Assembly: GCA_036253035.1 (NCBI GenBank)
Contig: GCA_036253035.1_4123.1
Length of the DNA: 64,000 nt
Source: a phage
Strand: one strand, 5' to 3'
Each line of letters begins with the position of its first letter. Position 1 is the stretch's first letter. Shown piece by piece: positions 2,523 to 44,818 of the stretch. Made by a program: the position numbers and the translations under genes. The notes beneath the pieces are model-generated. The model was not told the DNA's origin. It saw only the letters and a list, made by a program, of their open reading frames with translations, and made no database searches.

Positions 2523-2523
2523 A

Positions 2524-6462: not shown

Positions 6463-6470
6463 AATTCGCC

Positions 6471-12259: not shown

Positions 12260-12260
12260 G

Positions 12261-13598: not shown

Positions 13599-13833
13599 AT
13601 TTTTCCACAATTCGTTCATTTAGTTTTATCTGTATAAGATCCATTAGTTGTTCAAGATAATCGGTACAATATTTCTCTTGATATTGGGTTCCCACAAAGT
13701 ACAGCAACCATAGCTCATGAACTTTAACTTTCATCTCGTTCCATGAAAGTTCACCGTCATCGTAGATTAGTCTTGCTTCTGGGGTGAGCTTTCGAATTCT
13801 AAGTGAATATTCATCGTTCGTCAAGTGTTTCAT
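13576..13833 (-). CDS. LGTNYQE-family small protein
   Basis: Core FVGTQYQEK; N-terminus MKHLTNDEY. Confidence 0.65.
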   Translation of the reverse strand: MKHLTNDEYSLRIRKLTPEARLIYDDGELSWNEMKVKVHELWLLYFVGTQYQEKYCTDYLEQLMDLIQIKLNERIVEKYEDFIKH

Positions 13834-13988
13834 TTACATTTATCCCTTATTAGATTTGTGAGTGCAACTATGTGTTCATGGACATAAAAATTCTGATGAG
13901 AAGTTCCAAGAAAGTACAGCATCCATCCCTCACTCTGCTCGACTTTTAGTTTAGTATCGAGTTGGTCAGATATGTTAATGAAAACCAT
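13830..13988 (-). CDS. LGTNYQE-family small protein, N-terminally shortened (52 aa, below track cutoff)
   Basis: Manually translated MVFINISDQLDTKLKVEQSEGWMLYFLGTSHQNFYVHEHIVALTNLIRDKCK; start and stop overlap both neighbours. Confidence 0.5.
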   Translation of the reverse strand: MVFINISDQLDTKLKVEQSEGWMLYFLGTSHQNFYVHEHIVALTNLIRDKCK

Positions 13989-14212
13989 TAGTTCTTTTCC
14001 TTTCTTTCTATTTGTTTCATAAGAACATTGATATACTCACCCGCAAACCTATTCTGATACTGCGTCCCCATGAATTCCAACATCCATACTTCAGCAACCT
14101 TTTCTTCAATTTCAGTCCATTGTAAGTACATCATAGTGAAGTAAATGGTGTTCTCTTTTTTTCTGGCACTCTTAGCACGGGCCTCGTATTCAAAGTTATT
14201 AATGATGTTCAT
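13988..14212 (-). CDS. LGTNYQE-family small protein
   Basis: Core FMGTQYQNR. Confidence 0.65.
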   Translation of the reverse strand: MNIINNFEYEARAKSARKKENTIYFTMMYLQWTEIEEKVAEVWMLEFMGTQYQNRFAGEYINVLMKQIERKEKN

Positions 14213-14426
14213 TACATTTGTCCATTATGTAATTAGTGAGTGCAACGATGTGCTCATGAACATAGCCTTCTTGGAAGTTAGTCCCCAGTACAGCCAACAT
14301 GCGAATCTCGGTGGTGTTTATCCTGTGTTCCCTTATAGATAAACATTCTTTTTGTGGAAGTGTAAAATATTTGTTTATTACAGCAATGATAATTTTATTC
14401 TTCTCTATATTACTTAAATGTTTCAT
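14199..14426 (-). CDS. LGTNYQE-family small protein
   Basis: Core VLGTNFQEG. Confidence 0.65.
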   Translation of the reverse strand: MKHLSNIEKNKIIIAVINKYFTLPQKECLSIREHRINTTEIRMLAVLGTNFQEGYVHEHIVALTNYIMDKCNEHH

Positions 14427-14638
14427 AGTTTGCTCCTGACGTATTTCTCAAGAGATGACAAATACTTTTCCTCATAATACTCCTGATAGTCTGTTCCCAA
14501 GAATGCACCCAAAAGTATTTCATTTTCCAATACCTCGGCTAAGTTTAAATCAGAAGTCTCTTCGTATATTATGAGGATTTCAAGTTGTCTGGCAGCGATG
14601 CGTTCAGTATATTGATATGATTTTTCTAGAATAATCAT
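14423..14638 (-). CDS. LGTNYQE-family small protein
   Basis: Core FLGTDYQEY; near-duplicate of next copy (MIIL...). Confidence 0.65.
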   Translation of the reverse strand: MIILEKSYQYTERIAARQLEILIIYEETSDLNLAEVLENEILLGAFLGTDYQEYYEEKYLSSLEKYVRSKL

Positions 14639-14847
14639 AGTTTACTCTTAATGTGGTTCTGAAGTGCAATAAAGTATTCTCCTACATAATACTCCTGAAA
14701 GTCTGTATCCAAAAATGCACCCATAAGTAAATCCTTCTCCATTACCCTTGATAAGTTAAGATCTGCATTTGAAAGGTATATAAGTAATATTTCAGCCTGG
14801 ACAGATTTAAAACGTTTCTTATATTCTTCAGGTGTTAATATAATCAT
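14635..14847 (-). CDS. LGTNYQE-family small protein
   Basis: Core FLDTDFQEY. Confidence 0.65.
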   Translation of the reverse strand: MIILTPEEYKKRFKSVQAEILLIYLSNADLNLSRVMEKDLLMGAFLDTDFQEYYVGEYFIALQNHIKSKL

Positions 14848-15053
14848 AGTTTACTCTTAATATCTTCTATTAAAAATCGAATCCAATCTTGAACATACTC
14901 TTCCTGATGGTTTGTGTTCAGTACAGCCAACATACGGATCTCTGCTCTTGCAACTTCAATTTCAGTTTTAGGAAGGTCTTTGCTGATATCCACCATTAAG
15001 TCCATGTATTTCAAGATAAGACCGTATGATTGGGTTCGTGTTATAGTTTTCAT
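14844..15053 (-). CDS. LGTNYQE-family small protein
   Basis: Core VLNTNHQEE. Confidence 0.65.
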   Translation of the reverse strand: MKTITRTQSYGLILKYMDLMVDISKDLPKTEIEVARAEIRMLAVLNTNHQEEYVQDWIRFLIEDIKSKL

Positions 15054-15250
15054 TGTTTCCTCGTGGACAAAATTTCATTTTTCAATGTATCCACATATTT
15101 CGTTACCCATGCATCCTGATAGTTAGTTCCCAATGTAATCAAAAGGTATAACTCCATTCGTTCTACGTGTGAGTCTGTATTATAAATCTTTGTGAAGTTT
15201 TTACGTAACAGTGCTTGATATTCTTTTTCGGTTAATTTACGCATTTTCAT
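15050..15250 (-). CDS. LGTNYQE-family small protein
   Basis: Core TLGTNYQDA. Confidence 0.65.
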   Translation of the reverse strand: MKMRKLTEKEYQALLRKNFTKIYNTDSHVERMELYLLITLGTNYQDAWVTKYVDTLKNEILSTRKQ

Positions 15251-15444
15251 AGTTTACTCGTTACATCTTCAATTAAATACCAAATCCAATCCTTGACATA
15301 CCTTTCCTGATAGTTAGTCCCAATGAATAGTGCCATAATTAATTCACGCTTATAGGCAATACCACGGTCATGTGACTTATACATTATCATAGCCATGTTA
15401 TTGATAAGTCTTTCGTGGTGTTCTGCTTGAGTTAAAATACGCAT
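15247..15444 (-). CDS. LGTNYQE-family small protein (first gene of array)
   Basis: Core FIGTNYQER; start moved to ATG of MRILTQAEH with AAGGGAG RBS 5 nt upstream; track start lies inside the promoter. Confidence 0.6.
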   Translation of the reverse strand: MRILTQAEHHERLINNMAMIMYKSHDRGIAYKRELIMALFIGTNYQERYVKDWIWYLIEDVTSKL

Positions 15445-15474
15445 AGGGACTCCCTTGAAAATAATATCAATCAT

Positions 15475-15502
15475 ATAATATATGAATTGTATAAAAAGTC
15501 AA
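15475..15502 (-). promoter_or_regulatory. sigma70-like promoter for the LGTNYQE array (TTGACT-N16-TATTAT)
   Basis: Minus-strand -35 at 15497-15502, -10 at 15475-15480; only promoter-like site upstream of the 26-gene array. Confidence 0.5.
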
Positions 15503-15693
15503 TAACATTTTATTCGTAATACCCCTTTATCGAAGTCGCTAAGGTTACCCGCCCTTTAGCCCCCTACGCATTTTGCCATAGTCCAATCCCTTTTATTTTA
15601 AAAAAGTCAAGGGATTACCTATGCATTTTTTTAACGCATTATTTTAAAAACGCCTTGACTTTTTTCTGAATCAGTACTAGATCCCTTTACGCA

Positions 15694-17105: not shown

Positions 17106-17322
17106 TTTATATCTCGCTCTTTTGGAGGTGGGCTGCACTATTGCCGCCCTACGAGATACATTATCTCAGTACTGATATACTTTGTCAATACTTTTTTTGA
17201 AATAGTTTTGAGTACTGGCATTACATCCACCAGCAGATAGTTACTCACCGTTATTAACTATCTTATAGATACTTCTCTGCACCCTGTGGGCTAGTTTTTG
17301 TCTATGCGTATATAATAGCAAA

Positions 17323-17352
17323 GGGACTGACCGGAGTCAATCCCTTTTTTTT
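17323..17352. terminator. intrinsic terminator hairpin (GGGACTGACCGGAGTCAATCCC + T8) with embedded minus-strand TTGACT-N17-TATTAT
   Basis: 9-bp stem with one mismatch, CGGA loop, T-run on plus side; member of 6-copy element family. Confidence 0.55.
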
Positions 17353-17363
17353 ATTCTTTTTTG

Positions 17364-18838: not shown

Positions 18839-19060
18839 TTAATTACGTTTAAAATGATATGTACCGTTATCATCCTGTACGCCCCATACTGATTTACCAT
18901 CAACACCAGTGAAGCCGGATTGTAATTCAATATGGAAACCGTTAGCATCAACGACGAAAACTTTTTTATTTTCATCCCGATAGCATTGATATTCTTCACC
19001 TGCTTTAAATGCTGCATCATTCAGAAGATTTGAAGCGTGAACGCAGGTCATAGTAGTCAT
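18839..19060 (-). CDS. hypothetical protein (73 aa)
   Basis: Start moved to ATG of MTTMTCVHAS with AAAAGGA RBS; track extension runs through hairpin. Confidence 0.55.
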   Translation of the reverse strand: MTTMTCVHASNLLNDAAFKAGEEYQCYRDENKKVFVVDANGFHIELQSGFTGVDGKSVWGVQDDNGTYHFKRN

Positions 19061-19248
19061 CGTCTTGATTCCTTTTAGTACCAGGGAGAACCATTTCCCC
19101 CTCTCGATATAAAACATTATACGCTCATTGAGATAGTTTGCAAGTACTTTTTATAAAATAGTTTTCAGTACTGAATACTTATATAATAGATACACTTCCG
19201 CACCCTATGGGTCAGTGAGTTATCTCTCAATGAATATATAATAGCAAA

Positions 19249-19276
19249 GGGACTGACTGGAGTCAATCCCTTTTTT
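19249..19276. terminator. intrinsic terminator hairpin with embedded minus-strand promoter
   Basis: GGGACTGACTGGAGTCAATCCC + T6; same element family as 17323. Confidence 0.5.
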
Positions 19277-19284
19277 AATCTTTT

Positions 19285-19869
19285 TTATCGTGTTATAGTT
19301 ATCGCGTTAACATCACGTTTTTTATAGTACTGATTCCAGATATTGCGGGTTAAACCGTAATCAAGTACTTTAATCAAGCCGTTGCGATCCTGGCCGATAT
19401 TCTGTTTTCTGATATCTCTTATCGTTAGTGTGGATAATGTATCATCAACGTGATTGAGAGCATCAGCGAAATGGTGATGGCGTTCTACCGTATTACGTTT
19501 AATATTGTACTTTAACTCATTGCACGCGTTTACATGCTTTACACTGCCTTTGCTTGCAGTACTCAAACGATCCATAACAATAAACAGATTATCAGGATCG
19601 CATAAATGCATATGCACTTTAGCAAAGTACTGTTTAAGGTGCGGACGGTCATAATCTAAAAAATTCCATACCTTACATTCAGTTTCATTTTGTTCTACAC
19701 CCGCATCACAATTCGCGACCTTAATCACTAACCGATCATTTAAAGCGAATACAATACGGGAAGAACCCGCACCGACGATCTCCAGTCCAGCTAACCGACA
19801 AGCTGAAAGGATCTCTTTGTTGGTTTCCATTGCATGAAGTGAACGGATGAATTTAGTATAGTTACGCAT
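19285..19869 (-). CDS. putative protein kinase-like protein (194 aa)
   Basis: Gly-rich loop GAGSSRIVF, VIKVA lysine, catalytic-loop-like IRDIRKQNI, DFG-like VLDYGL; start moved to ATG of MRNYTKF with AAGGAG RBS. Confidence 0.55.
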   Translation of the reverse strand: MRNYTKFIRSLHAMETNKEILSACRLAGLEIVGAGSSRIVFALNDRLVIKVANCDAGVEQNETECKVWNFLDYDRPHLKQYFAKVHMHLCDPDNLFIVMDRLSTASKGSVKHVNACNELKYNIKRNTVERHHHFADALNHVDDTLSTLTIRDIRKQNIGQDRNGLIKVLDYGLTRNIWNQYYKKRDVNAITITR

Positions 19870-20513: not shown

Positions 20514-20909
20514 TTAGATAACCTGGCGGCGTTTACTGTATACTGTTACACGGTTTCCTTTACGGTCATGACGGATCTCTTTCTGGTTACGAATCAGTTC
20601 ACTTGGACGCTTAAGGTTTGCCAGGTGATCCGCGTGAGTCCATGCATTTGCGTTAACTGTAACTTCAATATCAGAACCTTTCAAAAAGTCATCTTGAGCG
20701 TTCAGTACTTCAGCCAGTTCTTGAGCTTGCTTTAGTTCTGCTGCTGTAAGTACAGGCTCAGGTGAATTCACAATATCAGAGATCTCTTTGAACTGTACCG
20801 CCCAGCGTTGTCCTTTCGGTGCATCTTTGCCCATGTCTTTAAATGTTTCACCTTCTTCACGGGCAACGATGCGAGCTTGTTCACGGGTAGCGAAGAATTT
20901 AGTAATCAT
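20514..20909 (-). CDS. hypothetical protein; paralog of 33264..33530
   Basis: Shares FATRExARIxAR..TFKDMG..RWAV and C-terminal HDRKGNRVTVYS with 33264 gene; TTGACA-N17-TATAAT upstream. Confidence 0.65.
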   Translation of the reverse strand: MITKFFATREQARIVAREEGETFKDMGKDAPKGQRWAVQFKEISDIVNSPEPVLTAAELKQAQELAEVLNAQDDFLKGSDIEVTVNANAWTHADHLANLKRPSELIRNQKEIRHDRKGNRVTVYSKRRQVI

Positions 20910-21008: not shown

Positions 21009-21332
21009 TTACATGTCTTTCTTACGTTTTACATCGTAGTAGCGAACTGTAATTTCTTTGTTGATCTCTTCCTCGATGCGGTGAATAACTTTTTCTTTCG
21101 GGTTGAAACCTATTACAGTTTCTTTAATGATCTCCAAGCCCGTGTATTCGCCTTGTGTACCGTAACCGTAAGTAAAGGTTTCATGTCCCAGGTCTTCCCA
21201 GCGGTCACCAATCAATGCAGACACGTAGCATGAGTGGTAAGTATTGCCGTGGCTATCAGTCCACCGATTAACTTTAATGTCAAAGGAAGTTACAATTTTC
21301 ATTTCTACTTTCTGGGTAAGGATCATAGTCAT
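21009..21332 (-). CDS. hypothetical protein; paralog of 28216..28560
   Basis: Shares GNTY(H/F)S, YGYG and C-terminal DVKRKKD with 28216 gene; AGAGAG RBS. Confidence 0.65.
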   Translation of the reverse strand: MTMILTQKVEMKIVTSFDIKVNRWTDSHGNTYHSCYVSALIGDRWEDLGHETFTYGYGTQGEYTGLEIIKETVIGFNPKEKVIHRIEEEINKEITVRYYDVKRKKDM

Positions 21333-21784: not shown

Positions 21785-21985
21785 TCAAATTGTTTCCCAT
21801 TTCATGTTACCCGCTTTACGCTGTGAAACAGGAATAAACATGTTATTAATGTTACTAATATAACCGACCTGTAAGTCACGCTGTGAACCATACGCCCGAC
21901 TTGCTGCATTTTTAGCACCGCGTTCTGATTTATAAACGCCGCTGGATACTGTAAAGCCTACTACACCGAAAGTAAAATGTTTCAT
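21785..21985 (-). CDS. hypothetical protein (66 aa)
   Basis: ATG with AGAGGA RBS; TTGACA-N16-TATAAT upstream. Confidence 0.6.
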   Translation of the reverse strand: MKHFTFGVVGFTVSSGVYKSERGAKNAASRAYGSQRDLQVGYISNINNMFIPVSQRKAGNMKWETI

Positions 21986-22270
21986 TTTGTATTCCTCTTT
22001 GTGGTTGATGTAAGTATTATACTCGTTTAATTTCTATTGTCAAACTATTTTATCAGGGGAGGTTTTCGTATGTCTTACTCCTGGACTACTTAACGGGGTT
22101 ACTTATTTCGTTCCCCGTCCTGATGTAAAACATTATACTTGATTCTAAGTACAATGCAAGTACTTTTTAAAAATAGTTTTCAGTACTTGATAGTACTAGC
22201 CACCAGCATATAATAGATACATTTATGCACCCTGTGGGTTAGATTGTTTCTATGCATATATAATAGCAAA

Positions 22271-22298
22271 GGGACTGACCGGAGTCAATCCCTTTTTT
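22271..22298. terminator. intrinsic terminator hairpin with embedded minus-strand promoter
   Basis: GGGACTGACCGGAGTCAATCCC + T6. Confidence 0.5.
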
Positions 22299-22306
22299 AA
22301 ATCTTT

Positions 22307-22456
22307 TTAAACTTGTTTTGGGTTGCGATATGTGATAGCGTTCGGGTACATTTGTTTAATGTTATTCCATGCCTGGTTAACATTGTAACCACTTGATCGA
22401 ATCAGTTGGTTACTTCCTACGCCCTGGAACACTACTTCGAATAAGAATTCTTTCAT
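22307..22456 (-). CDS. hypothetical small protein (49 aa, below track cutoff)
   Basis: Manually translated MKEFLFEVVFQG...; start overlaps stop of upstream small ORF. Confidence 0.4.
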   Translation of the reverse strand: MKEFLFEVVFQGVGSNQLIRSSGYNVNQAWNNIKQMYPNAITYRNPKQV

Positions 22457-23025: not shown

Positions 23026-23349
23026 TTATTCACCTTGTTTGAATTTAGTTTTCTCCATTGATTCCATGATTGCAACCAATACAGCATGGATCTCACTTAA
23101 CGCGGCATCACTAAAAGCATTAATGAATAGGCAATCATTCTCGCGAATATTTTTAATGTACTTATCAGCAGTGGTTGCGAATTCATTCAACGGCAGATCA
23201 AATGCTTTATCCCATAATGGATGGCGTAACTGTAACAGTACTGGATTATCACGGTCACCAGGTGAGAAAGTGCCTGTAATGAAACATACACCAGGGATAC
23301 TTTCGAATTGACAACGAACTTCTTTTGTGATAGTAGTATGAATATACAT
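23026..23349 (-). CDS. hypothetical protein (107 aa)
   Basis: ATG with AGAGGA RBS. Confidence 0.55.
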   Translation of the reverse strand: MYIHTTITKEVRCQFESIPGVCFITGTFSPGDRDNPVLLQLRHPLWDKAFDLPLNEFATTADKYIKNIRENDCLFINAFSDAALSEIHAVLVAIMESMEKTKFKQGE

Positions 23350-23376
23350 TTATTTTTATCCTCTATTAAATTAATA

Positions 23377-24556: not shown

Positions 24557-24618
24557 GATATTATATAGTTACATTTGTGCACCCTATGGGTTAGTGACGT
24601 TCTCGTCTTGATGTAAGT

Positions 24619-24647
24619 ATTATGCCAGTACTGGCATAATTTGTCAA
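24619..24647 (-). promoter_or_regulatory. sigma70-like promoter (TTGACA-N17-CATAAT)
   Basis: -35 at 24642-24647, -10 at 24619-24624; leader contains conserved dyad ACCCATAGGGTGC. Confidence 0.5.
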
Positions 24648-24651
24648 TAGA

Positions 24652-24849
24652 TTATTTTAACTTTTTTCTGTCATTGATTAATGCTTTCAGTACTATACTA
24701 ATGATCTGCAATGATTCATCAATGACTATAAAATTATTTTCTTTCATTAGATGATAGTTACCATTGATTGTATATTCTAAGGAGTACTGTTTACGTTTAA
24801 TTTTTGATAATGTTTCTATTTGTTTTTGTACTGATTTCATGCTAATCAT
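24652..24849 (-). CDS. hypothetical protein (66 aa)
   Basis: Start moved to ATG of MISMKSVQ. Confidence 0.45.
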   Translation of the reverse strand: MISMKSVQKQIETLSKIKRKQYSLEYTINGNYHLMKENNFIVIDESLQIISIVLKALINDRKKLK

Positions 24850-25186: not shown

Positions 25187-25366
25187 TTAGCGGTAGTCGT
25201 CGTATGCTTTATTCACCTGGCGAATGTAACTTTCAAAGGCTTCGTCTACCGTTTCATACTCCCGAACATAATCACCATAGGAAACTACATACATCCCTTT
25301 TTGATCTTCAAACGTCATGATGATAGAATCCAGGCCGATGATTTCAGTTTTTGCGATAATAGCCAT
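25187..25366 (-). CDS. hypothetical small protein (59 aa, below track cutoff)
   Basis: Manually translated MAIIAKTEIIGLDSII...; AAGGAA RBS; promoter upstream. Confidence 0.45.
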   Translation of the reverse strand: MAIIAKTEIIGLDSIIMTFEDQKGMYVVSYGDYVREYETVDEAFESYIRQVNKAYDDYR

Positions 25367-25449
25367 TTTAGTATTCCTTAGTAGTGTAGTTGATAAAAGT
25401 TATTATGCCAGTACTATCAATCATTGTCAATAGTACTGTGATAATATTT

Positions 25450-25662
25450 TTAGTTAATGATAGTCAGTGTAAAATTGTAATCCCCTGCCTGGTATAGTAC
25501 TTTGTCGCCGAATGTACCAACACGTTTCATATTGCAATAGATACCCATAACACTTTTTACATCTTTGATATTCCGAACGCCTGTGATATCCTTGTTGAAA
25601 TTTTCATGATCAGAAAATAAAACTTGTTTTGCATTTTTCAGTACAGTGCAGATATTAGCCAT
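25450..25662 (-). CDS. hypothetical protein (70 aa)
   Basis: ATG with AGAGAG RBS; 5' hairpin GGGGAGAACTATTCTCCCC; TTGACA-N16-TATAAT. Confidence 0.6.
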   Translation of the reverse strand: MANICTVLKNAKQVLFSDHENFNKDITGVRNIKDVKSVMGIYCNMKRVGTFGDKVLYQAGDYNFTLTIIN

Positions 25663-25755: not shown

Positions 25756-26097
25756 TTATTCAAAATCTTCTGGACCGGACTGATAATCATCTTCACCGTA
25801 TGCACTTTCTAACTTCTCGCCAGTGTGATCATCAGTTAGTGAGTCATCCTCATAGTTCACGTCTACGCCTACAATGTAAAACTGGCTATCGTCTGGATCA
25901 TTGAAATTAATTTTCTGAATGTTTACAATAACGGTATTGATGCCCAGGACACCGCCATCAGCAGTTACAAAGTACTGATATTTTTCACAACCGCCTGAAT
26001 TGAAACCGTAATTAATTTCGGCCCGACCATCATTTAAACGCAGTGCCTGGGCGATGATTTCATTTTCAAAGTTAGATTGAGCAATTGAGATAGTCAT
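25756..26097 (-). CDS. hypothetical protein with strongly acidic C-terminal tail
   Basis: C-terminus rich in D/E (DDDSLTDDHTGEKLESAYGEDDYQSGPEDFE); ATG with AAGGAAA RBS; hairpin. Confidence 0.6.
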   Translation of the reverse strand: MTISIAQSNFENEIIAQALRLNDGRAEINYGFNSGGCEKYQYFVTADGGVLGINTVIVNIQKINFNDPDDSQFYIVGVDVNYEDDSLTDDHTGEKLESAYGEDDYQSGPEDFE

Positions 26098-26281
26098 GAT
26101 TTGTTTCCTTATTACCAGGGGAAACCGTTTCCCCTTTCGATGTAAAACATTATACGCTTATTGAGATAGTTTGCAAGTACTTTTTAAAAATAGTTTTCAG
26201 TACTCAAACATTATATAATAGATACACTTATGCACCCTGTGGGCTAGTGAGCTATCTCTCAATGAATATATAATAGCAAAA

Positions 26282-26309
26282 TGGCTGACCGGAGTCAACC
26301 ACTTTTTTC
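26282..26309. terminator. intrinsic terminator hairpin (element family variant)
   Basis: GGCTGACCGGAGTCAACC + T6. Confidence 0.45.
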
Positions 26310-26537
26310 ATTTATTTTTAGCTTTTAGAATCGCCGCCTTTCGCGTCATGCCTTGCTTGATGTATTCCTGTACTTTCGCTTTACGTGCATTCGCTTTATT
26401 TGCTTTCGTAAACGCCGAACAACTTTTATAATTTAAGCCTGTTGGATTCATTTAAATCACCATAAAGAATAGATAGGTTACTAACAATGCCGCGATCAAT
26501 GCACCGACCAGGGCCGAACTATAGTAAGCTAATGATT

Positions 26538-28215: not shown

Positions 28216-28560
28216 TTAAAGATCTTTTTTGCGTTTAACATCAGTTACCGAACTGTAAACAGTGATATTATTGTCACGGCAAAAACGGGAAAGATAAGAA
28301 CCGCGTAAAAACTCTTTATCTTCCATATTAATAACCTTGCTAAATTCTTCCATTGCTACAGTGTCAAAGTGATCCCCGTATCCATATTGGAACGGCACGT
28401 TTACTACTTCAATAAAATTACCATCAATTTCTACGTCTACACTTAAAGAGAAATAAGTGTTACCATATGAAGCCTGGAACCAACGCCGAGCGGCAATATG
28501 TACAACTTCAACAGAAGACAGGTTGATATTTTGTGCTGAGATAGTGTTGATGTTAGCCAT
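28216..28560 (-). CDS. hypothetical protein; paralog of 21009..21332
   Basis: Shared GNTY(H/F)S, YGYG, DVKRKKD; AGAGGAAA RBS; TTGACA-N17-CATAAT. Confidence 0.65.
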   Translation of the reverse strand: MANINTISAQNINLSSVEVVHIAARRWFQASYGNTYFSLSVDVEIDGNFIEVVNVPFQYGYGDHFDTVAMEEFSKVINMEDKEFLRGSYLSRFCRDNNITVYSSVTDVKRKKDL

Positions 28561-28641
28561 TTTAATTTCCTCTTAGTTGTCTTGATAAAATCTATTATGC
28601 CAGTACTATCAATCTATGTCAATAGTACTGTGATAATAATT

Positions 28642-28854
28642 TTACTTACTTTGCTTTGATGCTTTATGTTGTGCAACTGCCATCACTACATCAGTACGAA
28701 CAAAGTTAGCAACCGTATCAGTATAATATTTGATTGCATCGTCAATATCTGCGAACATCCGATACATTCCGCACCATGATACTTTATAACCCGCTTTCAC
28801 TTGTTCAAGTTTAACCAGTGAATTGTTTACTTTGATTTTTGTAATGATAGCCAT
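28642..28854 (-). CDS. hypothetical protein (70 aa)
   Basis: ATG with AGAGGAAA RBS; promoter/UTR is ~85-bp direct duplicate of the one upstream of 28216..28560. Confidence 0.6.
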   Translation of the reverse strand: MAIITKIKVNNSLVKLEQVKAGYKVSWCGMYRMFADIDDAIKYYTDTVANFVRTDVVMAVAQHKASKQSK

Positions 28855-28936
28855 TTTCTTTTTCCTCTTAGTTGTCTTGATAAAATCTATTATGCCAGTA
28901 CTATCAATCTATGTCAATAGTACTGTGATAATAATT

Positions 28937-29080
28937 TTACTTACTTTTTGCTTTCTTTACAGCTTCCACCTGGTCGGCCCACTCTTTACCCCATACTTGA
29001 GCGTTATAGTGATACTGACAAAGAGCAACGCCCCGTTTCAAACCAGTGATAGATTTTTTACCACATTGACAAGTTTTCAT
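28937..29080 (-). CDS. hypothetical Cys-containing small protein (47 aa, below track cutoff)
   Basis: Manually translated MKTCQCGKKSITGLKRGVALCQYHYN...; 5' hairpin and promoter upstream. Confidence 0.45.
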   Translation of the reverse strand: MKTCQCGKKSITGLKRGVALCQYHYNAQVWGKEWADQVEAVKKAKSK

Positions 29081-29166
29081 TTTTAGTTTCCTCTTAGTGG
29101 GGAGAATCATTTCTCCCCTTGATGTAATGTATTATACTTTATCTGATTTACTTTGCAAGTACTTTT

Positions 29167-29394
29167 TTAATTTAATTCATCCAGGCAAAGGATACGATCT
29201 ACACCTAAATCAGTTAAGCTAATAGACGGCACTTGATAGGTTTCAATGTATTCTACACTAGCCCACTGACCGAACTCATTCACCGCCCAGGTATTCATTG
29301 CAAAATGTAATTCCGCACCTTTCTTATTAGTAATTACAGCAACAGTGCTAGAAGTGCCAGTAGTGCCAGATACGTAAGTAATGATGATAGCCAT
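29167..29394 (-). CDS. hypothetical protein (75 aa)
   Basis: ATG with AGAAGGA RBS; TTGACA-N16-TATAAT. Confidence 0.6.
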   Translation of the reverse strand: MAIIITYVSGTTGTSSTVAVITNKKGAELHFAMNTWAVNEFGQWASVEYIETYQVPSISLTDLGVDRILCLDELN

Positions 29395-30912: not shown

Positions 30913-31024
30913 TTGTATATCCTTTGTTAGTACTAGGGAGTATTCCCGATTAGATGTAAAACATTATACGCATTTAAAAACTATTATCAAGTACTTTAAT
31001 ATAAAAGTATTTGAAAAAAAAGTC

Positions 31025-31053
31025 TTGACAACTGCATCCAGTACTGGCATAAT
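31025..31053 (+). promoter_or_regulatory. plus-strand sigma70-like promoter (TTGACA-N17-CATAAT)
   Basis: -35 at 31025-31030, -10 at 31048-31053; downstream transcript would carry dyad ACCCACAGGGTGC and end at hairpin 31134-31151. Confidence 0.5.
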
Positions 31054-31059
31054 ACTTAC

Positions 31060-31160
31060 ATAAAGACGAGATAGTCACTAACCCACAGGGTGCATAGATC
31101 CGTCTATTAAATGATTCAGTACTGCAAAATAAAGGGGATCGTTTGATCCCCTCTGTATTA
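31060..31160 (+). ncRNA. candidate small non-coding RNA (~100 nt)
   Basis: Region between plus-strand promoter and hairpin/U-rich tract; no ORF; contains family dyad motif. Confidence 0.3.
31134..31151. terminator. bidirectional terminator hairpin
   Basis: GGGGATCGTTTGATCCCC flanked by A/T-rich tracts on both sides; downstream of minus gene 31158..31379. Confidence 0.5.
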
Positions 31161-32352: not shown

Positions 32353-32964
32353 TTAATATGCGATAGATTCTACTACATCGTCGATAACGTTAAATTGATA
32401 TTCGTTACCCTCGATCAGTGCTACAATGTTTTCAGTAGTAAACTGGTCTTCATAAGCATTTTCTAAATCACGGTACAGCTTACAAGATAATTCTCGGATA
32501 GTATCAGTCAGTAAGTTTTCCAGATCCTCAGCTAATGCAGCCTGTTTTACAGTTAAATCAGTGTAGCGAGTATCAACGCAACCGCCTACCGTGTTTTCGT
32601 GTGCATAACGCGATTGGGAACGTTCTACACTCATTTCCAAATCATCTTCGTTCAACAGGTGACGGATGGAACGATATTTCGTTAACGCCTTAACCTTGCG
32701 TAAAAACTTCTCAGCGTCAACGTGGTCAGTACTGATTGATGCACCGTCACCTTGCGACCAAAAACCACTGTATTGCAATTCAGCTTCATCTATGCCGTAT
32801 TCTGGTAGTACTGTTTCTTTATAGTATTCCAGTACTGATTCAGCAAAGAAATTATCCTCACTTGCACGTTCCCGATCCCGAACCAGTTCGATAGCCGCCG
32901 TTTGTTGTTCTGCGTTCAGTTCAGAAAAAGCCATAACAAAAGTAGTAGTAGTGATAGTTTTCAT
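32353..32964 (-). CDS. hypothetical acidic protein (203 aa)
   Basis: Start moved to ATG of MKTITTTT with GAGGGT RBS; D/E-rich; conserved long leader upstream. Confidence 0.6.
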   Translation of the reverse strand: MKTITTTTFVMAFSELNAEQQTAAIELVRDRERASEDNFFAESVLEYYKETVLPEYGIDEAELQYSGFWSQGDGASISTDHVDAEKFLRKVKALTKYRSIRHLLNEDDLEMSVERSQSRYAHENTVGGCVDTRYTDLTVKQAALAEDLENLLTDTIRELSCKLYRDLENAYEDQFTTENIVALIEGNEYQFNVIDDVVESIAY

Positions 32965-33263
32965 TTTGTAACCCTCATTCATTAGTTGATGTAAGTATTA
33001 TACGCTTTTACTTTCTATTGTCAAACTATTTTATCAGGGGAGTTTTTCATACGTCTTACTCCTGGACTACTTAACAGGGAGTTACTTATTTCATTCCCCG
33101 TCCTGATGTAAAACATTATACGCCTTTAAACATAGTTTGCAAGTACTTTTTGAAAATAGTTTTTAGTACTTTCCTATAGATACACTCCCGCACCCTATGG
33201 GCTATCGCCTTGTGTCCGGCTTGTAAGTATTATCTCACTAAGCCGGATAACGGTCAAGTACTT

Positions 33264-33530
33264 TTATTCAAGTACTGCAATCTTTTTAGTACTGTACACT
33301 GTAACGCGGTTGCCCTTGCGGTCGTGCTTTATTTCTACCACGCGACGCGATACACTATCAGGACGCTTTAAAGCAGATAGCCAGTACTGAATTGATCGGG
33401 CTGTACTTTGCTTTACTACGGCCCAACGTTTACCACGTTCAGATTGTACGCCCATATCTTTAAACGTCGCCCCGTCCTGGCGTGCGGCAATCCGAGCAAG
33501 TTCACGCGTTGCAAAGTATATAATATTCAT
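33264..33530 (-). CDS. hypothetical protein; paralog of 20514..20909
   Basis: Start moved to ATG of MNIIYFATREL; shares FATRE..ATFKDMG..HDRKGNRVTVYS. Confidence 0.6.
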   Translation of the reverse strand: MNIIYFATRELARIAARQDGATFKDMGVQSERGKRWAVVKQSTARSIQYWLSALKRPDSVSRRVVEIKHDRKGNRVTVYSTKKIAVLE

Positions 33531-34308: not shown

Positions 34309-34618
34309 CGTTTTAATCTCTTTTAAAAGTGAGTCGGGAGCGTATCCCCCGTCTCGATGTAAAACATTCTACACCTTTCCCAATACTTTGCAAGTACTTT
34401 CTACAAATACTTTTAAAATAGTTTTCTTTCTATATAGGGGAACTATCTTTCAGTACTGAATCAACCAAATCACTACTATACACCCCATAAAACGGCCTCA
34501 GCCGCTTTCTAACGCATTAATACACCTAAGCTATACATTTGCACCGCCACCAGCTAACCAGGGCTTTACGGGCCGTTTAAACGCGTTAAATTATTTTCAA
34601 TTATTTTGTTTTTAGCTA

Positions 34619-34646
34619 TTGACTCAGCACCGAAAAAGCGTATAAT
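34619..34646 (+). promoter_or_regulatory. plus-strand sigma70-like promoter (TTGACT-N16-TATAAT)
   Basis: -35 at 34619-34624, -10 at 34641-34646; reads into non-coding hub carrying family leader motifs. Confidence 0.5.
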
Positions 34647-35086
34647 TACTACATAGACGCGAGAAAGCGGATACCCCTGGGGGGTGCGGAATTACGCCCA
34701 AAATTCATATAATTTAAAAAGGATACACTCCCGCACCTTAGCAGGTCATAGCACTTTCTCAGTACTGAATAATAGTATCATAGTACGCCCCAGGATGGCA
34801 AGCAAATTAATTAAAACTTTTTGCGTTTAGGGTATTGCTTTATTTTTTCAGTACTGCTATAATATTTTCATCAAGTCGAGAAAGACTCAAGCCCACCGGG
34901 TGCATAGTTACGCCCAAAATTCAGTACTGAAAAAAATTTTAAAAATATCCGTCCAGGCCGTTGACATTGCCCCCAGTTTATAAGATAATGATTCCAGATT
35001 CAGAAAAATCTAACTCCAGATACTGCGGGGAAACTATCCCCACGCGGTAGGGGAACTATTGGAAAAAACAAAATAAAATTTTGATT

Positions 35087-35200
35087 TAGCCGTCTATACT
35101 TCCAGACGTGTAACCATCTAGCCGTTTAGCCGTCCAAACGTCTAGCCATCCAGCCATCCAGAAATCTAGCCGTCTAGCCGTCTAGATGGATAGCCATCTT
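35087..35200. repeat. iteron-like direct repeats, ~10 copies of TAGCC(G/A)TC
   Basis: ttagccgtctat / ctagccgtttagccgtcc / tctagccatccagccatccag / ctagccgtctagccgtctagatggatagccatc. Confidence 0.6.
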
Positions 35201-36051
35201 TACTTCCAGACTTCTGGAGGGCTAGACATATCTACGTCCAAAATCCATCCAGGGTAACTACGCCCAAAATCCGTCAGTACTATACCATAGATCTATCTTG
35301 TGAAAGGAGTATTCAGTACTGCCATCATAGCCCTCACTATGTTACCCTAGGAGGATGAAGACTATCATGTAGTACTGAATACTGTTAGAGGGAATCCACC
35401 AGCACAAGCTGGTGGCATAATGCTTTAGATTAAAATCAGTACTGACACCATTCTGTTAATATCAGTACTGTTATTACGATTTTCATATGAGGTTCAAAAA
35501 GATGTACCACCACAGGAGGAACTATCTTTTCTGTACTGTCTCACGACAGGAGGTAGAGTAAATGAATTGTTGGCAGCAACTCATCTCTCTATGTAGAACA
35601 TTATACAGTACTGAATCATAATGTCAATAACTTTCTTTCATTATTCAGTACTGATATTCTTGAGAACTACCCGTCTACAAACATCATTATATCCCACAAA
35701 TCATAAACGTCCCAACGTAAATTTCAACTTTCGAAGATCCAACTTTTATTTCATAGGTACTCCAAAATTTTTAGGATCGAGATTTAGGATGGAGTACTAA
35801 CCAACTTTTTGCTGGAGCCTCAAGGGGTAATGGAATTTTACCCCGAAGGGTAAAAGGGTAATTGTAATTAAGGTGAAAGTAATAATTCAGTACTAATCAT
35901 TGCGTGATTACTTTTGATTACATTTGATGTAATTTGCAAAATGGAAAAGGAGCTTGGAAACTACAAAGTACGGCAGACTTCCTCTGCCTACTTAGTGGCA
36001 TATCAGTACTGCTACGTTCTTGATTAAACGTGAACATTCCTGTACTCTAGT

Positions 36052-36140
36052 ACTCACTACTGATCACTACTGATCACTACAGTGATTATAAATGATTACT
36101 TAAATGTTTATATATGATTACTTATGACTACCTATGATTA
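36052..36140. repeat. short tandem direct repeats (CACTACTGAT x3; ATGATTAC x3)
   Basis: ctcactactgatcactactgatcactacagtgattataaatgattacttaaatgtttatatatgattacttatgactacctatgattac. Confidence 0.55.
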
Positions 36141-36255
36141 CGGGGTTTAGCCTGGGGAGAATCCTAGTGATCGCATTTGTCCAGGCTGAATTTTAACAAT
36201 TCGCCTGTACATAAAGGTTGTTCACTAGGAGCTTCCCCTGTCTACTTGTGTTTAA

Positions 36256-42387: not shown

Positions 42388-43527
42388 ATGTTACCTTTTG
42401 CAAGAATGGTTAAGTACGGGAATATCGCACCTGAACTGATTCTACCTAAAAACAGGTTACAATGTTCTGCTGATGCCAAATTTTATTTACACACAAATGG
42501 CAATCTATATTGGTTTGGTTCTTCAGCATATGGACAAAGTGGTAATGGTTCATTGGACTCTTCAACTGAATGGACTCTTGTCAACTCAAATGTTACACGA
42601 TATTGGGGTGGGGTACAAGGAACAATTGCTATAAAGAAAGATGGTACTATTTGGTACACTGGTAGACGTACTGTTATTCCAATACTATCTTCAAACACTA
42701 ACGGCGTTTGGGTTGATATAACACAGAACTTTACTGATTTCGGTGTCAGTGCAGATGATATTGATAGTGTTGTGATATCTTCGTGTATGCGTGTATTTTT
42801 AAAAAATGGAAAGTGGTTCTACTGTGGTGCTGGTACTGGTGGTGTTTTTGGGAATGGATCAACTTCAAGCGTTTCACGATTCACCTATAGTACAATAGAA
42901 AATGTTATCAGTGCTGGTTGTGCAATATATAGTACTGGATTAGTACTAAATGATGGTTCATATTGGTATGCAGGTAGAACGTTTGTATCAGGAACGACGA
43001 CACAAAACTTGCTCACATTTACACAAGATACTTCGATTAGTAATGCAATTAAAGCAGTCAATACAAATGAAACTTCTTATATATTTCTTAATGATGGTAA
43101 TGTTAAAGTTGCATCTATTAACGACTATGGACAAGCAGGTACAGGAAATAGGTCAGTAGCCCCAATGAGTACATTAATTCCAAATTTATCATTCCAAGGA
43201 GAAGTGGAGTTGGTGGGTGAGCTTGGGACAAACCTTACCGGACCATCCTGTATAATTAATAATAATAATAAGTTATTTTCATGTGGCCTTAATTCAAATG
43301 GTCAATGTGGTATTGGTACAACTGATATGTATATAACATCATTCGCTGAAATGGATCTTACTGCATTAGAAGGTAGTAATCTTAGTAGTTTTTGTAAGAG
43401 CTATTCTTATACGATGTTAGTTGACGAATATAATAATTTATACACATGTGGTGTACCCAATCTTACTGGAATGTCTTCAACTACTGTACCAACAAGGGTT
43501 CCTGATTCACTTCTACCGTGGAAATAA
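42388..43527 (+). CDS. RCC1-like beta-propeller repeat protein with conserved N-terminal leader
   Basis: Starts MLPFARMVKYGNIAP; YGQSGNGS, YGQAGTGN, NGQCGIGT repeats. Confidence 0.8.
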   Translation: MLPFARMVKYGNIAPELILPKNRLQCSADAKFYLHTNGNLYWFGSSAYGQSGNGSLDSSTEWTLVNSNVTRYWGGVQGTIAIKKDGTIWYTGRRTVIPILSSNTNGVWVDITQNFTDFGVSADDIDSVVISSCMRVFLKNGKWFYCGAGTGGVFGNGSTSSVSRFTYSTIENVISAGCAIYSTGLVLNDGSYWYAGRTFVSGTTTQNLLTFTQDTSISNAIKAVNTNETSYIFLNDGNVKVASINDYGQAGTGNRSVAPMSTLIPNLSFQGEVELVGELGTNLTGPSCIINNNNKLFSCGLNSNGQCGIGTTDMYITSFAEMDLTALEGSNLSSFCKSYSYTMLVDEYNNLYTCGVPNLTGMSSTTVPTRVPDSLLPWK

Positions 43528-43598
43528 TATAATGCCAGTACACTGTACTGGCTTTCTTATTTGTATTAAATATAGTATAATGAATAAAGGAGGGAAAT
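43528..43598 (+). promoter_or_regulatory. intergenic terminator/promoter/SD module
   Basis: Hairpin 43534-43552 + T-run; TATAAT 43576-43581; near-identical to 42317 copy. Confidence 0.6.
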
Positions 43599-44747
43599 AT
43601 GTTACCTTTTGCAAGAATGATGAATTATGGGAATATTGCCCCTGGTAAGGATAGGCGTTTTAAAATATATTCAAGTGATTCTATGTATCTCCATGATACT
43701 TATACTAATAAGTTGTATGCATCTTCTGCGACGAATTGGGGTACTGGTACAGGTGTAGCATCGAGTAAATTTATTCTTTGTGCAGAGAATGTTAAACGAG
43801 TTCTATTGGAAGATAACAGTAGTAGTTGTCAAATGTATGAAGAGAAAGGTACTGGAAAAGTTTTTATCACTGGTAACACGAAGGCATTCACTGGTGTAAC
43901 TGATACAAAAACTTTGTGGACGGACTGTACTACGTGGATAACATCAGGTGGTATTAATGTTTCTGATATAAAATACATGAGTAGTTTTAATGATATGAAG
44001 GTGAATTTGATAACAAACGATGGTACGTTGTATTGTTGTGGAGTTAACAATAACTCGAACCTATCATCATTTGGTGATGGTACAAACATTAATTCTTTTA
44101 ACACATTCAAAAGGGTAGATACTATAACTTCGGTTAAAAAGGCAGTTGGTAACATATACCTAAAAGAAGATAATACTTTATGGGGTTGTGGTTTTAACTA
44201 TTACTATCAGTTAGGTACAGGTAATCAAACTTCTATTACTGGGGTGACGATGATTGCTTCAGATGTTATAGATTTTGATGTAAGTTATCAGAGTACATTT
44301 TTTATTAAATCGGATAATAATTTGTACGCTTGTGGTAAACAGTTCGGTGCACAATACGGGAACGAATTTGGCACAGGTGGTACTTCTTCATCTACCGATA
44401 TACAATACAAAACTCCGACATTATTGAGTTCAGGAGTTTATACTCTATATACGTGTGTTAGTAACATGGCATCACATATAGCTAAAGGTGATGAAGTTCT
44501 ATACGCATCTGGGTCGAATGGATTTGGTCAATTAGGTGTTGGTAATAATATTAATCAGTACTCATATACTCCTTCGTATACTTCGTTTAATAGTTCGTGT
44601 AATTTGGTACGCACTCCATCTGGTTCACTTATACTTACGGACACTGAGCAATTATATTATTGTGGGTATGCTATGGTAGTAATGGGGGGAATTGCTGGAC
44701 AAAACATTCTTAGTTATACAGAAGTTGATATGTCATTTATACAATGA
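43599..44747 (+). CDS. RCC1-like beta-propeller repeat protein with conserved N-terminal leader
   Basis: Starts MLPFARMMNYGNIAP; close paralog of 46888..48036. Confidence 0.8.
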   Translation: MLPFARMMNYGNIAPGKDRRFKIYSSDSMYLHDTYTNKLYASSATNWGTGTGVASSKFILCAENVKRVLLEDNSSSCQMYEEKGTGKVFITGNTKAFTGVTDTKTLWTDCTTWITSGGINVSDIKYMSSFNDMKVNLITNDGTLYCCGVNNNSNLSSFGDGTNINSFNTFKRVDTITSVKKAVGNIYLKEDNTLWGCGFNYYYQLGTGNQTSITGVTMIASDVIDFDVSYQSTFFIKSDNNLYACGKQFGAQYGNEFGTGGTSSSTDIQYKTPTLLSSGVYTLYTCVSNMASHIAKGDEVLYASGSNGFGQLGVGNNINQYSYTPSYTSFNSSCNLVRTPSGSLILTDTEQLYYCGYAMVVMGGIAGQNILSYTEVDMSFIQ

Positions 44748-44818
44748 TTTAATGCCAGTACTCTGTACTGGCTTTCTTATTTGTATTAAATATAGTATAA
44801 TGAATAAAGGAGGAATTT
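44748..44818 (+). promoter_or_regulatory. intergenic terminator/promoter/SD module
   Basis: Same ~70-bp module. Confidence 0.6.

Follow-up and report, generated by a model that had tools for sequence, protein, structure and literature searches.

The window, by which we mean the whole stretch of 64,000 nucleotides that was analysed, belongs to an Asteriusvirus (121Q/PBECO4-like) jumbo phage. Its closest genomes carry the Asteriusvirus classification, and no genome identical to it was found in the searched collections. Four small minus-strand genes make up the slot described here. Gene N (29167..29394) encodes 75 aa, matches phrog_13850 and forms the next cassette upstream of gene A (28937..29080), which encodes 47 aa and has no family match. 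Gene B (28642..28854) is an ORFan of 70 aa matching phrog_35559, and gene C (28216..28560), of 114 aa, matches phrog_6246; both families are without assigned function. The B cassette is bracketed by two copies of an 87-nt minus-strand module, M7. Copy 2 (28861..28947) lies between A (upstream) and B (downstream), and copy 1 (28566..28652) between B (upstream) and C (downstream). In the repeat search the two copies were identical at 87 of 87 positions with a start-to-start spacing of 295 nt, and an exact match of this length cannot have arisen by chance. The first-pass annotation had reported that a promoter/UTR of ~85 bp upstream of 28216..28560 recurs upstream of 28642..28854, and this is what was found.

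A third, diverged copy, which had been placed near 25380, was located on the minus strand at 25374..25460. It is 80% identical and has the same stem and promoter with a different UTR, a 59-aa gene (25187-25366) lying downstream and a 70-aa gene (25450-25662) upstream. The latter was tried as a paralogue of B and rejected, as the two gave no alignment. A dot plot of the window against itself, made by self-BLAST, showed off-diagonal matches at the claimed positions: 28550-28657 against 28844-28954 (94.6% over 111 nt with gaps), 25360-25456 against 28554-28648 (84.7% over 98 nt) and 25348-25456 against 28836-28943 (82.9% over 111 nt). A looser relative of M7 on the minus strand at 24606..24652 reads TTGACA-17-CATAAT, with the -10 box inside a perfect 22-nt palindrome, ATTATGCCAGTACTGGCATAAT (24619-24640); the repeat search found an inverted copy of this block on the plus strand at 31014-31112.

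Read along the minus strand, M7 copy 1 comprises AGT AAG TAA (the final three codons of B), an AT-rich tract, a stem-loop, a promoter, a leader of ~30 nt and the Shine-Dalgarno (SD) site AAGAGGAAA, which stands at the 3' end and is followed by an ATG 4-5 nt on. In both identical copies AGTAAGTAAAATTATTATCAC stands before the stem and the -35 box. The putative sigma70-type promoter of copy 1 (28594..28622) has a -35 box TTGACA at 28622-28617, a 17-nt spacer and a TG-extended -10 box CATAAT at 28599-28594; that of copy 2 (28889..28917) has the same sequence. All three M7 copies score 11/12 with the TG, a score that expresses the match to the E. coli consensus only. The repeated unit was thus rightly annotated as a promoter/5'UTR module. 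We infer promoter activity of M7 from these boxes, and transcription would start near 28587 in copy 1 and near 28882 in copy 2.

The stem-loop of copy 1 (28601..28630, minus strand) is formed by CAGTACTAT and ATAGTACTG around a 12-nt loop holding the -35 box, and the stem-loop of copy 2 (28896..28925) is identical to it. The 9-bp stem, which carries one AGTACT in each arm, can be extended to a hairpin of ~25 bp taking in the -10 box. Folding gave -10.3 kcal/mol (z -3.5) as DNA and -20.3 kcal/mol (z -4.4) as RNA. Across 22 copies the arms are invariant and the loop is variable. Compensated arms occur in phage W70 (TAGCGCTAT/ATAGTGCTG) and in the IMG/VR locus L017 (TTATACTAT/ATAGTATAA). The latter lies on a 153-kb contig which, together with 121Q, was the only real match among 22 loci returned by a degenerate-pattern scan of IMG/VR for diverged M7; the remaining loci were rejected as chance matches with non-complementary arms. 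A consensus terminator scan did not call an intrinsic terminator at the M7 stem, which is AT-rich. The stem-loop may serve as an attenuator, a terminator or a processing site for read-through RNA.

Small ORFans form a block on the minus strand at 16-35 kb, punctuated by ~37 intergenic modules of which M7 is one subfamily. Every such module combines the stop codon of the gene before it and an AT-rich tract with a sigma70-type promoter, a stem-loop, a Shine-Dalgarno site and an ATG. A consensus scan of 16-35 kb predicted 37 promoter-like sites on the minus strand with scores of 10/12 or higher, and the repeat search gave at least 25 related module copies in 19-35 kb, i.e. many copies in an ORFan-rich region. 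Ten block genes were searched: no Pfam family was found in any of them, and nine matched PHROGs, all without assigned function, gene A being the one that matched none. Neither tRNAs nor Rfam families at gathering score were found in the window. Other Asteriusvirus genomes have been described with a direct terminal repeat of ~21 kb, to which the block corresponds, and the genes of the block are therefore presumably expressed early. The region is highly variable between Asteriusvirus genomes in the genome comparison. In the literature searched, neither promoter modules nor AGTACT were described for Asteriusvirus.

A sister module of hairpin type, Mhp (29081..29166, minus strand), lies upstream of gene A and consists of AGTAC-TTGCAA with the -35 box, a -10 box TATAAT, the hairpin GGGGAGAAATGATTCTCCCC and then the SD. 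The hairpin (GGGG..CCCC, downstream of the -10) covaries, four of its six pairs showing compensated changes among 16 copies. Mhp precedes A in the window, whereas E9.1 and PBECO4 have it immediately before B, so the module is not tied to one gene.

M7 was found in 51 phage records, at 3-10 places per genome, and is 95-99% identical in 32 of the records. The conservation spans 74-87 nt and takes in non-consensus positions, namely in the AT-rich lead, both stem arms and the leader; it even reaches into the unrelated upstream genes A and B, whose last three codons (AGTAAGTAA) it covers. M7 has few polymorphic positions. Gene B, in contrast, is found in 21 phage records only, at 83-89% identity, and its best database identity is at most 89.7%. 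A search for closer copies of the window's allele in IMG/VR gave 121Q only, and an exact 32-mer of B had no match in metagenome contigs. The linkers are thus better conserved than the cargo between them (95-99% in 32 records for M7 versus 83-89% in 21 records for B).

Seven related phages show five arrangements of the A/B/C slot: N-A-B-C in the window and A4, N-A-B-C' in 121Q, N-A-C in ph0011, SHEFM2K and UE-S1, N-B-C in E9.1, and X-B-C' in PBECO4. Here C' is a diverged member of the C family, found in 121Q (34-37% aa identity to C) and in PBECO4 (57.7% nt identity); the C slot of 121Q, PBECO4 and ELP-22 holds a 324-nt gene. In ph0011, SHEFM2K and UE-S1, B is missing at exactly the M7 position and exactly one M7 is kept. 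The alignment with ph0011 and SHEFM2K has a clean gap of one [B+M7] unit, leaving a single complete M7 and no scar. The ancestry of the slot is mosaic: segment up2 and gene A are each 99.3% identical to 121Q, A being absent from E9.1 and PBECO4, while C is 98.8% identical to A4, the adjoining M7 core is also A4-like, and B is at most 89.7% identical to anything. Mosaicism of the same kind was seen among all isolate genomes compared. Furthermore, genes B, A and N are found at 80-85% nt identity in the 137-kb Vequintavirinae phage W70, accompanied by modules of M7 or Mhp type.

Homology breakpoints against four relatives form 30 clusters, 27 of which are intergenic or within 30 nt of a gene end. 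By chance 13.5 +/- 2.7 were expected, and 27 was not reached in any of 10,000 random draws. There are exceptions to module-bounded exchange. At least one neighbouring indel, the gene at 23026-23349, is a promoter-less insertion (cassette 23028-23376) placed right after a stop codon, which is not module-flanked and has TAA(A) microhomology only. Additionally, the allelic swap between C and C' has its breakpoints at 28241 and 28544, within the conserved gene ends and not strictly in the module.

The first-pass annotation had interpreted the locus as a recent segmental duplication, in a cassette block evolving by local duplication which had also produced clear paralogue pairs. The perfect identity of the two modules does point to recent recombination or homogenisation. 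No gene-bearing segment was copied, though: B and C gave no alignment and B against A gave E=0.33, so that A, B and C are unrelated, and the duplicated part is the 87-nt module only, near-identical gene copies being absent. The named pairs are homologues. The gene at 21009..21332 (minus strand) is 29% identical in amino acids to C (E=2e-10), both matching phrog_6246. The minus-strand genes at 20514..20909 and 33264..33530 are 36% identical (E=2e-21) and both match phrog_8127; the second of these, if started from the ATG at 33530, is 267 nt long, as are the genes annotated at the corresponding places in 121Q and ELP-22. At the DNA level the first pair gave no HSP even at E<=10 and the second only 69% over 186 nt, and the pairs are therefore ancient, not recent. 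The gene in the C slot of 121Q belongs to the family as a third member, with 34-37% identity to each of the two window copies; allele or cassette replacement fits it at least as well as duplication. The view of the block as evolving by local duplication was partly right: paralogues at 29-36% aa identity are too diverged to demonstrate it, and M7 is lineage-wide (51 records) and no new local product.

Modules of a similar kind, the promoter-early stem-loops (PeSLs), are known in the T4-like myoviruses RB49/phi1, T4/PST and KVP40/nt-1 (Arbiol, Comeau & Krisch 2010, PMC2839356; Comeau et al. 2014, PMC4122927). We consider it probable that the 87-nt repeat is a PeSL-type regulatory linker and that single genes are shuffled as cassettes at such shared modules. 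Being better conserved than the intervening genes, the modules would provide movable stretches of homology in which recombination would insert, delete or swap single-gene cassettes, leaving the expression of the neighbours undisturbed. The two M7 copies are then the flanks of a single-gene cassette, B, which is present or absent in relatives, and not a gene duplication; this is a fairly ordinary case of cassette shuffling. The state of the window may have arisen when [B + one module] was newly inserted into a genome arranged C-M7-A, as in ph0011 and SHEFM2K, or alternatively by reassortment or homogenisation of pre-existing flanks. As M7 has few polymorphic positions, the identity of the 74-nt core could come from reassorted existing haplotypes and not from a new event. 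Homologous recombination as the mechanism, and likewise the direction and age of the event, are what we infer from these comparisons.

Duplication in situ, by replication slippage or unequal crossing-over, would have copied the module recently in a block that grows mainly by local duplication and obtains its paralogues in the same way. It agrees with 87 of 87 identical positions only 295 nt apart, with the existence of paralogous families and with other dispersed non-coding blocks of the window that self-BLAST found doubled at 85-86% identity (19054-19286 against 26091-26318 and 21980-22188 against 32959-33171). A tandem event would, however, copy an adjoining gene, yet B, C and A are unrelated; the paralogues, at 29-36% aa identity, have little or no DNA similarity; and the order A-M7-B-M7-C exists already in A4, and in 121Q with C' for C, so that the doubled module is not new to the window. 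With B at least 10% diverged from every known copy and its flanks 99% identical to different relatives, we regard this origin as quite unlikely. Gene conversion (concerted evolution) would instead start from an A4/121Q-like ancestor, A-M7-B-M7'-C, whose C-proximal copy and UTR were overwritten, with unchanged gene content, from the other M7 copy, from the copy in the second terminal repeat or from a co-infecting genome. The M7 copy beside C or C' in A4, 121Q and PBECO4 carries another UTR (CACATATTAATTTAAGGAATACTAAA), and the equivalent M7 pair of A4 and 121Q differs by 2-3 core mismatches in addition to its UTR. Both differences are erased in the window, C and the adjoining core are A4-like, and T4-type recombination-dependent replication makes short-patch conversion frequent. 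The window's linkage of UTR-1 to C is nevertheless already found in ph0011, UE-S1 and E9.1, so that simple reassortment suffices, and conversion leaves B as the most diverged segment unexplained. Conversion is compatible with module-mediated recombination, and a sub-case of it; as the explanation by itself it is possible but not very likely.

Modules could also be strong early promoters kept similar by selection only, and no substrate of recombination, with random illegitimate recombination (moron-like accretion) of which only junctions at gene boundaries survive. Boundary breakpoints are also expected from such selection, a promoter consensus by itself forces similarity, and some breakpoints do lie within gene ends; the promoter-less cassette at 23028-23376, inserted exactly after a stop codon with nothing beyond microhomology, agrees with this view. 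What makes the explanation unlikely is that the conservation extends over 74-87 nt with non-consensus positions and the last three codons of A and B, that the empty site in ph0011 and SHEFM2K keeps one complete scarless module, and that B is flanked by this type of module in an unrelated subfamily of phages too. An assembly artefact, i.e. a mis-join or a collapsed repeat in a mixed population giving a chimeric C-M7-B-M7-A path, is very improbable. The exact repeat of 87 nt is longer than common k-mer sizes, the sequences to the left and right of each repeat are closest to different relatives and no identical genome was found in the searched collections, but the independently sequenced isolates A4 and 121Q share the gene order and like mosaicism occurs in all isolate genomes compared.

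The palindrome AGTACT is ~9-11-fold over-represented genome-wide in Asteriusvirus. The excess holds within coding sequence too, in all three reading frames, and conservation of the AGTACT sites exceeds that of other hexamers. The motif, with CAGTACTG as its preferred form, makes both arms of the M7 stem and abuts the -35 or -10 box of many sister promoters. LexA and TrpR operators were considered as an explanation and rejected, since the partner half-sites they require appear to be absent. On a speculative reading, to which we give little weight, the modules are more than passive homology patches: a protein encoded by the phage would recognise AGTACT and bind, modify or nick the DNA there. It might set the timing of the early promoters or actively direct recombination to the modules, and would imply a dedicated system of cassette exchange and regulation common to jumbo Asteriusvirus and Vequintavirinae phages.

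Cassette shuffling at shared modules would offer a concrete way to explain the turnover of small genes that are candidates for host takeover or anti-defence in therapeutic jumbo coliphages. For annotators it means that differences between isolates in the early block are modular.

Several known systems resemble parts of this picture. Phage T5 has a pre-early/early gene block in its terminal repeat. In the Rak2-like phage CBB, RpoD-like promoters with UP-like elements cluster among short hypothetical ORFs and in the terminal repeat (PMC5259590). The likeness lies in a first-injected terminal repeat packed with small ORFs of host-takeover type, each under a strong host-sigma70 promoter; these accounts cover transcription only, and cassette exchange at the promoters is not described there. 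The morons of lambdoid phages, described by Hendrix and colleagues, are single genes with their own promoter (and terminator) inserted between existing genes. They are not known to have conserved flanking sequences, and they probably come by illegitimate recombination. Morons are also discussed in relation to PeSLs (PMC2839356). The window shares with them the self-promoted single genes between pre-existing ones, and differs in that the flanks are a conserved, repeated module. Integron cassettes likewise carry one gene each and are exchanged at a repeated site that flanks them, possibly via circular intermediates, but the window has no integrase or attC-type site, exchange would need general homologous recombination, and each cassette is self-promoted. 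Halovirus HF2 carries intergenic repeats with promoters (PMC8707807) and so offers families of promoter-bearing intergenic repeats in a virus genome; its promoters are archaeal, the virus is unrelated, and the likeness concerns the promoter-bearing repeats.

The closest likeness is to the PeSLs. Both are intergenic composites of ~100 bp with the same order, i.e. a stop codon in an AT-rich tract, sigma70-like -35 and -10 boxes, a variably placed stem-loop, an SD and an ATG, and both occur in many copies in ORFan-filled regions. PeSL stem-loops either overlap the -35/-10 boxes or lie downstream of the -10 (PMC2839356, PMC4122927), and both positions occur among the window modules. An ORFan between two PeSLs in one phage, with a single PeSL at the empty site of a relative, has been described (PMC2839356), and the close relatives compared here differ in the same way by single-ORFan indels, with two elements flanking and one at the empty site. 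Promoter boxes, stem-loop, SD with start codon, copy number and, with exceptions, element-bounded indels are thus common to both. The M7 stem is AT-rich with two AGTACT motifs, whereas PeSL stems are usually polyG/polyC, and the window block lies in a long direct terminal repeat. Recombination between PeSLs gives small circles, detected by inverse PCR, and their stem-loop terminates transcription in reporters. The window lineage is Asteriusvirus (~350-kb Rak2/121Q-like jumbo phages) and not Tevenvirinae, and the element also occurs in Vequintavirinae; this is a difference in host range, not in mechanism. The idea of promoter/stem-loop linkers as joints for the gain, loss and swap of early ORFan cassettes would thereby extend from T4-like phages to Asteriusvirus jumbo phages of ~350 kb, including the early region in their terminal repeat, with the same cassettes and linkers found in an unrelated phage subfamily.

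The first-pass annotation had claimed that a promoter and 5' UTR of about 85 bp is repeated almost verbatim upstream of two minus-strand genes, C (28216-28560) and B (28642-28854), with a third, diverged copy near 25380, and this description holds. The repeat search (family D7) delimited an 87-nt promoter-and-leader module, here called M7, whose copies at 28566-28652 and 28861-28947 are spaced 295 nt apart and identical at 87 of 87 positions, and whose third copy at 25374-25460 matches both at 80%. A self dot plot of the window, run as self-BLAST, gave off-diagonal matches at the same positions: 28550-28657 against 28844-28954 (94.6% over 111 nt, gapped) and 25360-25456 against 28554-28648 (84.7% over 98 nt).

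Every gene of this block is encoded on the minus strand. In that direction M7 reads AGT AAG TAA, which are the final codons of the upstream gene, then AATTATTATCA, CAGTACTAT, TGACATAGATTG, ATAGTACTG, a G and CATAAT, followed by AGATTTTATCAAGACAACT, AAGAGGAAA, 4-5 nt and ATG. In each of the three copies a consensus scan predicted a promoter, TTGACA-17-CATAAT plus a TG extended -10, that matches at 11/12; it made the same call in a fourth relative at 24619-24647, and called no intrinsic terminator in M7. Pairing of the two arms, each of which contains AGTACT, gives a 9-bp stem with the -35 box inside the loop, extendable to about 25 bp through flanking AT-rich tracts; the stem-loop folds at -10.3 kcal/mol as DNA (z -3.5) and at -20.3 kcal/mol as RNA (z -4.4). 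Comparison of 22 distinct copies, drawn from eight phages, shows a variable loop and invariant arms, and pairing is kept by two-sided changes in the diverged copies of W70 (TAGCGCTAT/ATAGTGCTG) and IMG/VR contig L017 (TTATACTAT/ATAGTATAA).

Only the module is duplicated. The genes adjoining it are all unrelated: C, B and A (28937-29080) share nothing with one another, and the 70-aa gene beside the third copy is unrelated to B. Local segmental duplication as the driver, which the first-pass annotation had proposed, is unlikely. Its two paralog pairs are true homologues, each with both members in one phage protein family (PHROG), but they are ancient. Identity is 29% for 21009/28216 (E 2e-10), a pair that gave no HSP at the DNA level, and 36% for 20514/33264 (E 2e-21), with DNA similarity of only 69% across 186 nt.

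The slot occupied by A, B and C was compared between the window and seven related phages, and five arrangements were found. With N being the gene at 29167-29394 and C' a diverged family member in place of C, the order is N-A-B-C in the window and A4, N-A-B-C' in 121Q, N-A-C in ph0011, SHEFM2K and UE-S1, N-B-C in E9.1, and X-B-C' in PBECO4. The multiple alignment shows a clean gap of one unit, B plus module, in ph0011 and SHEFM2K, with exactly one intact M7 left. A hairpin module (29081-29166) precedes A in the window and B in E9.1 and PBECO4, so a module is not bound to any one gene. Together with M7 and hairpin modules, N, A and B also occur at 80-85% nucleotide identity in Vequintavirinae phages of about 140 kb (W70, locus L005, 1165-2541; A7_1; A5-4), therefore the pool of cassettes and linkers is common to unrelated coliphage lineages. 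W70 (137 kb) has the order N-A-Z-B-Y, B being flanked on both sides by M7-type modules.

Nucleotide identity to the window shifts at each module. The up2 segment is 99.3% identical to 121Q; C is 98.8% identical to A4, 121Q having C' instead; B reaches at most 89.7% in any of the 21 records holding it; and A is 99.3% identical to 121Q and 98.6% to SHEFM2K. For M7, 32 records show 95-99% identity and 51 records carry it at 3-10 sites in each genome; the linkers are thus better conserved than their cargo. Breakpoints were taken from collinear BLAST of 18.2-34.3 kb against ELP-22, 121Q, UE-S1 and A4, and 27 of 30 clusters were intergenic or at most 30 nt from a gene end. Random placement of 30 clusters put 13.5 +/- 2.7 there, and 27 was not reached in any of 10,000 draws.

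On the interpretation with the best support, the modules serve as linkers for homologous cassette recombination, and the identical M7 pair represents the two flanks of cassette B. Recombination at these conserved linkers would insert, delete or swap single-gene cassettes. Breakpoints at boundaries would, however, also be expected if selection acted on random joins. Two further caveats are that a promoter-less 349-nt insertion (23028-23376) directly follows the stop codon of the upstream gene, where microhomology is limited to TAA(A), and that the C/C' swap has its breakpoints within conserved gene ends. The insertion holds a gene of 107 aa that has an SD of its own, is not module-flanked, and is missing from 121Q, UE-S1 and A4. 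At the C slot (window 28241, 28544; locus L004, 1200-1523) phages carry alternative, deeply diverged alleles, C and C' having 34% amino acid identity; C' of 121Q has 34-37% to both window family members, homology resumes within the conserved ends of the gene (~16 nt at the start, ~25 nt at the finish), and the end ...DVKRKKDL is common to all three C-family members.

The arrangement in the window is probably not an assembly artefact, since its gene order recurs in A4 and 121Q. Identity of the two flanks of B through the SD was seen in the window only, among the genomes examined; over the 74-nt core the B-flanking pair has 3 mismatches in A4 and 2 in 121Q, and in both phages the UTR beside C/C' differs from that of the partner copy. 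The single M7 of SHEFM2K equals both window copies through the SD, with differences only in a few bases between SD and ATG, and the C-proximal SD-to-ATG spacer of the window is that of ph0011, UE-S1 and E9.1. These sequences would fit an insertion of B plus module into a C-M7-A genome, and would fit just as well if existing haplotypes had been reassorted or had undergone gene conversion; the event may have been a gain or a loss of B. The first-pass interpretation is supported in part, in that the repeat is a promoter/UTR module and a recent event is plausible, but as cassette shuffling at a lineage-wide linker.

M7 is one subfamily within a much larger module set. Module families D1-D6 have 9-13 copies each in the repeat search, and 37 promoter-like sites with a score of 10/12 or more were counted on the minus strand of 16-35 kb. 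Most sister modules have a hairpin of the GGGGAGAA..TTCTCCCC type between -10 and SD, with compensated changes at 4/6 pairs in an alignment of 16 copies. The module-rich block begins at about 15.7 kb; the stretch 9800-15500 is operon-like, with tightly packed, overlapping minus-strand genes of 70-90 aa and no intergenic modules.

The window belongs to an Asteriusvirus of the 121Q/PBECO4 type (~350 kb), and 24-34 kb is matched best by BAU.Micro_ELP-22 (89% identity at 83% coverage) and 121Q (96.5% identity over 55%). Where genome ends are mapped, the homologous sequence is found 7-8 kb in from the left end; it is inside the annotated direct terminal repeat of vB_Ec-M-J and within the first 21 kb of fEgEco12, whose terminal repeat is 21 kb long (PMC13070987). 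RpoD-like promoters of the Rak2-like phage CBB are concentrated among short hypothetical ORFs and in the terminal repeat, regions read by the authors as early genes (PMC5259590). From this report and the terminal-repeat position, it is reasonable to regard the block as an early-gene block. Ten block genes tested gave no Pfam family and no PHROG of known function. An AGTACT-rich stretch of ~2 kb without a convincing ORF (34309-36250) matches un-annotated gaps in 121Q, A4 and UE-S1 and, by position, should adjoin either the physical end of the genome or the point where the direct terminal repeat stops.

Other repeats were also observed. Conserved non-coding blocks of ~100-230 nt, 75-85% identical, lie at 19054-19286, 22111-22317 and 26091-26318, with partial copies at 17265-17361, 24560-24594 and 33171-33205 and an inverted copy at 31078-31113. 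Each has a terminator-like hairpin enclosing the -35 box of a predicted promoter of its own (TTGACT-17-TATTAT) and a conserved GCACCCTGTGGGT motif, without an ORF, and is followed by the module of the next gene; they could be a small RNA or regulatory unit, and an Rfam search gave no match. The perfect 22-nt palindrome ATTATGCCAGTACTGGCATAAT (24619-24640, minus strand) overlaps the -10 of a predicted promoter. The 99-nt block around it (24560-24658) has a 79% inverted copy at 31014-31112, which places a similar promoter on the plus strand (31025-31053) in a gene-free gap. Between 39900 and 52000 a second intergenic repeat family (~110-120 nt, 85-95% identical) separates tandem plus-strand paralogous genes of ~380-400 aa (e.g. 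43526-44894 and 46817-48184, 75% identical), for which the annotation of the corresponding 121Q genes reads RCC1-like 'DNA condensation' proteins.

The window contains 237 copies of AGTACT where 20.4 +/- 4.4 are expected, ranging over 7558-64000 with none in 1-7557 and 12001-15672; the preferred form of this palindrome, CAGTACTG, is the commonest 8-mer. Within coding sequence 39 sites, in all three frames, compare with 8.5 +/- 2.7 under synonymous-codon resampling, and relatives keep AGTACT sites at 82-97% versus 59-85% for any hexamer. The first 350 kb of the unannotated relative EC22.5-2 (loci L035-L041) hold 913 sites where a first-order model predicts about 101, peaking at 56-69 per 10 kb in the cassette block, and CAGTACTG is there 46-fold over expectation. 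GTAC overall is 2-fold enriched in this sequence, and GGTACC and CGTACG, for which the same model predicts about 33 and 18 sites, do not occur at all, a pattern that resembles avoidance of palindromes next to the excess of AGTACT. No explanation for the excess was found in the literature searched. The sole link of the motif to the cassettes is that the M7 stem arms and many -35/-10 flanks are made of it.

No description of such modules was found in the Asteriusvirus papers searched. The closest known system is the promoter-early stem-loop (PeSL) of T4-like phages, a composite element of ~100 bp in which an AT-rich tract that includes the stop codon of the upstream gene is combined with a sigma70 early promoter, a variably placed stem-loop, and SD plus ATG; PeSLs concentrate in ORFan-rich hyperplastic regions, ORFan192 of RB49 has two flanking PeSLs where the empty site of phi1 has a single one, and PeSL mini-circles were demonstrated by inverse PCR (PMC2839356; PMC4122927). 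The window modules share every sequence-level defining feature of PeSLs but differ in lineage, being carried by Asteriusvirus and also by Vequintavirinae. They represent an ordinary, well-precedented kind of plasticity of phage genomes, here in a host group new for it.
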